Below are positions 9,315-9,472 of a stretch of 25,956 bases of DNA, one piece after another; the stretch's first letter is position 1; the number at the start of each line of letters is the position of its first letter. The DNA lies in NCBI GenBank assembly GCA_009788105.1, contig WQSD01000001.1, positions 1 through 25,956 on the forward strand, read 5' to 3'. This DNA is from Oscillospiraceae bacterium. Lineage in GTDB: Bacteria; Bacillota; Clostridia; Oscillospirales; CAG-272. A program made the translations under genes and the position numbers. The notes below the pieces were generated by a model. It ran no database searches. It saw nothing but the letters and a program-made list of their open reading frames with translations, and was not told the origin of the DNA.

Positions 9315-9472
9315 GTGTGTTGAATATCTCGGCGGAAAGTGGCAGTTTTAGCCACTTGGAGCGTATTTTTCTTGTTTTGTCAAAATGCCTTTGGTTGCGT
9401 AGCAACGATTTTTGGCGAAACAAGAAAAACGAGATTGAAACATGATTGACCACTATCCGTCTTATTCAACAC
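9315..9472 (+). ncRNA. Candidate structured leader RNA, copy A
   Basis: Closing stem GTGTTGAATA (9317-9326) / TATTCAACAC (9463-9472). Shares 29-, 11- and 11-nt identical blocks with 25130-25257 on the minus strand. Confidence 0.5.

Follow-up and report, generated by a model that had tools for sequence, protein, structure and literature searches.

The BOX elements of Streptococcus pneumoniae, built as boxA-boxB(n)-boxC, are small, non-coding intergenic repeats of a single lineage that occur about once per 20-30 kb and are co-transcribed with neighbouring genes. They combine fixed end modules with variable internal modules, their ends pair, and they form extensive hairpins. Orientation-dependent effects of the inner module have been reported (PMC3049150). 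Among MITEs, or miniature inverted-repeat transposable elements, the classical bacterial examples are RUP, Correia/CREE, ERIC and Nezha (PMC3184786, PMC10969869). Such elements share terminal inverted repeats, target-site duplications, A/T-rich targets, tight folding, high copy number and the absence of coding capacity, and they occupy transcribed intergenic DNA where they can alter expression. REP/REPIN sequences are also intergenic hairpin repeats with compensatory stem changes and signs that the fold of one strand matters; REP-associated tyrosine transposases (RAYTs) are the presumed agents of their movement. Lastly, riboswitches and ribosomal-protein leaders such as the S15/rpsO leader are 5' leaders with covarying stems. 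A riboswitch is typically shared by different taxa, serves a single pathway and is present once in each operon that it regulates.

A first-pass annotation of DNA from a termite-gut bacterium had described a structured element found twice, once in the leader of a recombinase gene and once upstream of rpsO, and had proposed that it was a new riboswitch-like or protein-binding RNA, with a small palindromic MITE as the alternative. Our analysis did not support the RNA proposal and pointed to a high-copy repeat with inverted ends and 5-bp duplications. In our view the two stretches are likely to have arisen as separate insertions of a lineage-restricted family of modular MITEs with a BOX-like build, an ordinary kind of genomic parasite. 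The repeat is a new family of a known kind, the small mobile hairpin repeat, in an uncultured termite-gut bacterium.

The comparison with BOX covers modular organisation; the hairpin modules themselves (named here A, c, B, C and D) are different. The repeat is similarly small, non-coding and intergenic, with pairing ends and hairpins, and is probably co-transcribed with its neighbours. What sets it apart from BOX are two interchangeable types of terminal repeat, an evident target-site duplication of 5 bp that is rich in A/T, and a marked preference for sites directly upstream of ribosome-binding sites. It agrees with MITEs in its size and copy number, in having inverted ends and in duplicating its target site. 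It differs from the classical ones in that a search of the 63.6%-complete genome revealed no parent insertion sequence sharing its ends, and in its ragged 3' end, where (T/C)CCC is present in about half of the copies; most of the MITEs described so far show less internal modularity and less extensive hairpin-precise deletion. The genome contains RAYT-like genes, as in REP/REPIN systems, whereas REPINs have no target-site duplication and normally flank a RAYT gene, and the termite-gut repeat has duplications and no flanking RAYT. One copy does lie upstream of rpsO, as an S15 leader would. In contrast to riboswitches, however, the repeat occurs in one lineage as dozens of near-identical copies next to unrelated genes, and it shows neither cross-taxon conservation in the genomes searched, nor related downstream genes, nor a consistent sense orientation.

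The two copies in the window

The window, i.e. the whole 25,956-nt stretch of DNA that was analysed, belongs to a 1.37-Mb metagenome-assembled genome (MAG) obtained from a termite-gut metagenome (219 contigs, 63.6% complete, 48% G+C). The host organism is probably a spore-forming member of Bacillota. The features of the window that concern the repeat and its surroundings are the following.

9249..9277, plus strand: promoter-like site TAGACT-17-TATGAT upstream of copy 1 (9/12 positions, a consensus match only)
9313..9476, plus strand: repeat copy 1, form A-B-D (nhmmer E 2e-46; covariance model 165 bits)
9503..11143, plus strand: large serine recombinase gene downstream of copy 1, context and not part of the repeat (Resolvase, Recombinase, Zn_ribbon_recom and DUF4368 domains)
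22094-24490, minus strand: pnp, following rpsO (PNPase domains)
24747..25010, minus strand: rpsO (ribosomal protein S15) downstream of copy 2, context and not part of the repeat (Ribosomal_S15, E 2e-38)
25126..25259, minus strand: repeat copy 2, form A-c/C-D (128-nt core, 25257-25130)
25268..25296, minus strand: promoter-like site TTTACT-17-TATTAT with an upstream TG (9/12 positions, a consensus match only)

The 29-mer starting GTGTGTTGAATATC has two exact sites in the window, 9315-9343 (+) and 25229-25257 (-), against zero matches expected by chance (100 shuffles), and the 11-nt blocks CATGATTGACC and TTATTCAACAC are common to both copies in identical order. The shared blocks given in the first-pass annotation (29/29, 11/11 and 11/11, in one order) were therefore recovered in both. 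Copy 1 consists of a 158-nt core (9315-9472) with a terminal GA and a terminal TCCA and lies 30 nt 5' of the recombinase ATG, in what is the minority orientation for this repeat. Copy 2, separated from the rpsO ATG by 119 nt, lacks module B and is one of two copies of its architecture in our census.

Both copies are predicted to fold tightly, at -57.6 kcal/mol for copy 1 (z -5.55 against shuffled controls) and -48.4 kcal/mol for copy 2 (z -3.32), and in both predicted folds the ends are paired in the 10-bp closing stem described earlier. The differing middles, said to form a hairpin in each copy, do so: an A/T-rich one in copy 1 (9366-9385/9410-9429) and CGCTCAC/GTGAGCG in copy 2. The two copies are also in the sense orientation downstream of a predicted promoter, as had been stated, with promoter-like matches at 9 of 12 positions in each case; the site at 25268..25296 (-) stops 10 nt short of copy 2. 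Like the first-pass annotation, we could not assign the element to any Rfam family: no match passed the gathering threshold, and those that appeared at E<=10 were chance resemblances to microRNA models.

Rfam likewise yielded no family for the 119-nt interval (25011-25129, minus strand) that separates copy 2 from the start codon of rpsO; a native S15 autoregulatory leader, if any, would sit there. Directly upstream of copy 2, the stretch 25258-25470 (-) holds two further short repeat families, one of ~70 nt that has counterparts of 87-94% identity on contigs C50, C20 and C51, and one of ~57 nt that resembles sites on contigs C50, C122, C19 and C27. Small intergenic repeats are unusually plentiful in this genome.

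Modules, copy number and distribution

The repeat is described here on the strand read by the first-pass annotation (the annotated strand below). Its modules, as seen in the window, are as follows.

9315..9357, plus strand: module A, made of the type I terminal repeat GTGTGTTGAATA, ATCTCGG and a small G+C hairpin, AAGTGGC/GCCACTT
9358..9441, plus strand: module B, a long A/T-rich hairpin with arms 9366-9385 and 9410-9429
9442..9472, plus strand: module D, with ATGATTGACC as its core, followed by a variable spacer and then by TTATTCAACAC, the terminal inverted repeat of the 3' end
25167..25214, minus strand: C-type hairpin of copy 2, CGCTCAC ... GCGTGAGCG, an alternative internal module repeated genome-wide

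Complete elements measure 44-449 nt, with a mode of 157 nt, and have no coding capacity, their reading frames being broken by indels between copies. At the 5' end, GA precedes GTGTG in 42 of 46 copies; at the 3' end, CAC is followed by (T/C)CCC in about half of the copies and the end is ragged or variable in the others. The terminal inverted repeat of 10-14 bp exists in two co-varying versions. Type I ends, GAGTGTGTTGAATA / TATTCAACAC(T/C)C, give the 10-bp closing stem and contain TTGAATA/TATTCAA; type II ends, GTGCCTTCTA / TAGAAGGCAC, contain CCTTCTA/TAGAAGG. Both ends are of type I in 21 copies and of type II in 8, and a further 8 are mixed (chimeras).

Module B carries a GTTGCGTAGCAAC tip followed by a run of T, and its last part is CGAGATTGAAAC. 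On the annotated strand this tip is terminator-like (7 bp, then T5; site 9394-9406), and the opposite strand mostly lacks the terminator-like hairpin and T5. Modules c and C are the two halves of the CGCTCAC/GCGTGAGCG hairpin and are able to enclose B. The architectures counted were A-B-D (24 copies, the common form to which copy 1 belongs), A-B-C-D (7), A-c-B-D (4), A-c-B-C-D (2) and A-c-C-D (2, including copy 2), with mini forms of 44-103 nt also counted. Where deletions occur, they coincide with the bases of hairpins. What had been taken as typical of riboswitches and protein-binding RNAs, namely invariant junctions around a free stem, is in fact a pair of fixed end modules enclosing one of two alternative internal repeat modules, each of which recurs dozens of times.

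Several individual loci were observed in other arrangements. At C159:1716-2091 (-), a copy is split within the long hairpin by a AAGGTCAAG-type palindromic repeat, a nested insertion; this palindromic family is also present in the window, e.g. at 12175-12301 and 24537-24590. At L032:183-338 (-), on the metagenome contig JGI24703J35330_11678031, which has only repeats in common with the MAG, the hairpin tip is reverse-complemented and reads GCTACGCAAC instead of GTTGCGTAGC; this swap is a DNA-level loop inversion. The same contig holds another repeat of ~70 nt (L032:1520-1588), which is unrelated to the hairpin element and is found on more than 15 genome contigs, 87-97% identical at most listed sites. 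At L035:8547-8955 (+), two element copies lie head to tail ~17 nt apart, the first of type II and the second of type I. The interruption, the tip inversion and the hairpin-base deletions are DNA-level behaviours of palindromic repeats.

The statement that the element is present twice holds for the window and fails for the genome, over which at least 60 copies are scattered. With up to 3 mismatches the 29-mer had 12 genome matches, and an nhmmer profile built from six copies gave 63 hits. A census demanding both ends counted at least 47 complete non-redundant elements in the 1.37 Mb, with fragments besides, i.e. about one copy per 20-30 kb. The exact 10-mer of the D core, ATGATTGACC, occurs 61 times (~2.6 by chance), and the 12-mer of module C, AATGCGTGAGCG, occurs 47 times. 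Many copies lie at contig ends, as expected since repeats break assemblies.

Outside this genome the repeat was not detected in the collections searched, which were samples, so that its absence holds for the genomes covered. BLAST found it in 0 of 40 relatives. A covariance-model search of Clostridia had been proposed as a check; model R1, built on 21 copies, retrieved nothing from 150 genomes (97 genera) that belong to the same family and nothing from 150 of the same class. There was no match in plasmid and phage collections, and among the representative genomes of 185,579 species an exact 22-mer gave one chance hit, in a coding region of a Pseudomonadales MAG. A metagenome scan yielded 22 loci, nearly all 100% identical to the host genome, which therefore provide longer context and no independent strain.

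Target-site duplications and gene context

The flanks of the copies argue for mobility. We compared the 5-mer located just before the terminal GA with the one located four bases after CAC. At these fixed offsets 15 of 46 copies showed a perfect direct repeat and 21 of 46 matched at four or more of the five positions, whereas pairing left flanks with wrong right flanks (1000 trials) gave 0.33 expected perfect matches and a maximum of 3.3. A freer search for direct repeats gave 15/30 against 1.4. The duplicated 5-mers are 87% A+T. Half of the complete copies have A/T-rich direct repeats of 4-5 bp at the fixed offsets, the footprint of a transposase that makes staggered cuts. A minority of copies have direct repeats of 6-9 bp at places where the usual (T/C)CCC is missing, which leaves the exact 3' boundary unsettled. 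A clear duplication was not seen in half of the copies, both window copies included: no direct repeat stands out around copy 1, and the one around copy 2 is weak and only 4 nt long.

The MITE alternative of the first-pass annotation thus stood, with many copies, both orientations and target-site duplications. That annotation had also expected a MITE to show no covariation, and on this point it was not borne out, since covariation is present. Copies of the repeat are paralogues in one genome, so that covariation shows that the hairpins are kept and not that the RNA has a function, and it does not separate the MITE reading from that of an RNA gene.

A search for an autonomous partner gave negative results within the MAG. 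Inverted pairs of ends 350-5000 bp apart were due to chance or to two small copies and enclosed no gene, and the extra end matches in the genome were all small derivatives, with no autonomous element having matching ends. Tn3-type and DDE_Tnp_1 transposases gave no hit in this MAG, which is 63.6% complete and in which repeats assemble poorly. An A/T-rich duplication of 5 bp together with an outer end rich in G raised the question of a Tn3-derived element; the data gave this no support, since the inverted repeat measures just ~14 bp and the MAG yielded no Tn3 transposase. No joint skipping either window copy was seen in the contigs of two termite-gut metagenome runs. The metagenome contigs that carry the element come, nearly all, from the same strain.

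Two loci with isolated pieces of the element were recorded. On contig C15, the ORF beside an isolated element end encodes a putative ParA/MinD-type ATPase, as judged by eye from the translation. At L033 ~4690-4720 (-), on contig C157, a ~27-nt 5' fragment of the element is joined to the middle of an IS21-type istA, followed by istB, with an IS110-type transposase gene on the other strand (both families were assigned by eye from translations). This joint is either a real rearrangement or an assembly chimera. The IS21 copy is truncated and its ends are unrelated to those of the element.

The position of the copies relative to genes is strongly biased. Of 42 copies, 33 have at their 5' end, on the annotated strand, a gene that starts there and points away, the remaining 9 having the orientation of the two window copies. 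The distance from the 5' end to that gene is typically 10-40 nt, and the reverse complement shows a Shine-Dalgarno sequence and an ATG. The other end faces starts and ends of genes about equally often (23:21), and in several copies a TATAAT box abuts this end or sits 10-16 nt outside it. Most copies are therefore reverse-complemented, with a promoter or an upstream gene on one side and the next ribosome-binding site on the other. For co-directional gene pairs the orientation bias was 18:4 (16:4 in a recount), and in a test of replication direction the gene-strand balance of the contig predicted orientation worse (15:9) than the local genes (18:4). A consensus scan of the element found no internal promoter. 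Tabulation of the downstream genes, also proposed as a check of the RNA reading, revealed functionally unrelated genes. The neighbours include those for a sigma factor, purA, MBOAT, YtfJ, a CNNM transporter, PTS EIIC, nitroreductase, the recombinase and rpsO.

The orientation bias suggests selection against insertions that would put the terminator-like hairpin on an mRNA. The absence of module B from copy 2, a sense copy in front of rpsO, which is presumably an essential gene, agrees with such selection, but other sense copies retain module B.

Taken as a modular MITE family, the repeat would be moved in trans by a transposase lying outside the incomplete assembly and would insert into promoters and leaders rich in A/T. 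The modules of its interior, nested hairpins in the order A, c (optional), B, C (optional) and D, are gained, lost or fused, and selection would remove the copies that harm expression, leaving a bias that keeps the terminator-like hairpin and T run of module B off the mRNA strand. The hairpins may be co-transcribed with their neighbours and modulate expression as a side effect, with no dedicated sensor. Copy 1 would then be an insertion into the recombinase leader, and copy 2 an insertion between the rpsO promoter and the native rpsO leader, carrying the C hairpin instead of B.

Strand asymmetry and alternative explanations

When the stems were examined on 20 distinct sequences, 98.6% of cells were paired and 11 of 39 pairs had changed on both sides. 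The covariation score was reached by 0 of 500 shuffles, and slid controls pair at ~45%. The AAGTG/CACTT stem noticed in the first-pass annotation corresponds to the AAGTGGC/GCCACTT hairpin of module A, which covaries across copies (pairs 24-29 with 39-44), and the module B stem showed double changes at 5 of 10 pairs. Wobble pairs are distributed unequally between the strands: in 47 distinct copies, with one invariant pair excluded, G·T cells on the annotated strand numbered 58, spread over 15 stem positions, and A·C cells numbered 5, over 5 positions. By reasoning, mutational asymmetries of coding or leading strands would predict the opposite bias. The pattern suggests that a single-stranded form of the annotated strand matters, probably for propagation. 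Compensatory change in the stems and strand-asymmetric wobble are not predicted by a purely double-stranded cut-and-paste cycle. The wobble asymmetry keeps a mechanism of the HUH/RAYT type, or one with an RNA intermediate, alive at low probability.

Among the alternatives, the one that survives best is spread via folded single-stranded DNA recognised by an HUH tyrosine enzyme, as is presumed for REP/REPIN hairpins and RAYTs. We regard this as unlikely. The genome does encode two RAYT-like proteins of ~175-180 aa whose best NCBIfam match is the REP-associated tyrosine transposase and in which the HUH and Y motifs are visible (contig C117, L069:1420-1959, minus strand; contig C129, L070:815-1336, plus strand). 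An intermediate folded in a strand-specific way would fit the one-sided wobble, the MAG yielded no DDE partner, and several other hairpin repeat families are present in the genome. However, the two proteins score 53.7 and 74.7 bits, below the curated family cut-off of 80 bits, and both genes are wedged between coding genes with no copy of the repeat beside them. Moreover, HUH insertion proceeds without target-site duplication, yet the 5-bp duplications are highly significant, and the element has conventional terminal inverted repeats. A broader proposal, that a folded single-stranded intermediate of the annotated strand (ssDNA with a RAYT-like HUH enzyme, or RNA) inserts directionally between promoter and ribosome-binding site, is in our view about as doubtful. 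If true, the repeat would be a strand-specific, leader-targeting hairpin combining REPIN-like propagation with MITE-like target-site duplications, and the G·T pattern and the 79% orientation bias would arise from mechanism and not from selection.

It is less likely still that the host has recruited the repeat as a portable 5'-leader module whose reverse-complement strand stabilises or tunes many mRNAs, with the orientation bias reflecting this function besides the removal of harmful insertions. The position of 33 of 42 copies at a gene start, a short distance from a Shine-Dalgarno sequence and ATG, the TATAAT boxes at or near the other end and the bias within co-directional pairs would all agree with such a role. 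The same bias is, however, expected from selection against a terminator-like hairpin on the mRNA, a preference for A/T-rich targets would alone place insertions near promoters, and the wobble asymmetry indicates the other strand.

The idea with which the first-pass annotation began, a dedicated cis-regulatory RNA (a riboswitch or protein-binding leader) that acts on the annotated strand and controls the downstream gene, now appears highly improbable. The strong predicted folding of both window copies, the genuine covariation (11/39 double-changed pairs, 0/500 shuffles), a wobble asymmetry favouring the annotated strand and the sense orientation of both copies after promoter-like sites speak for it. 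Against these stand the dozens of near-identical copies with target-site duplications, most of them antisense to the chosen strand (only 9 of 42 share its orientation relative to the 5'-side gene), the unrelated functions of the neighbouring genes, the absence of homologues in the 300 family and class genomes searched, and a variable stem that is a module swap and not a free helix. As for an integron attC site, GTTGAAT/ATTCAAC fit the attC core-site consensus; this candidate was rejected because the two motifs stand in the reverse of their attC order, the other type of end does not match and cassette arrays are absent.

Recognition of the two stretches as members of a repeat family removes a false riboswitch candidate and illustrates how a modular mobile repeat can mimic a riboswitch, with its conserved junctions, variable stem, covariation and position after a promoter. 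For this termite-gut bacterium, it reveals a very dense repeat family that fragments the assembly and occupies many gene leaders, including those of rpsO and an integrase. Annotation, and any search for non-coding RNA, should mask or model it. The only unusual points are the orientation bias upstream of ribosome-binding sites and the one-sided wobble, which offer modest leads on how such repeats are tolerated or propagated.
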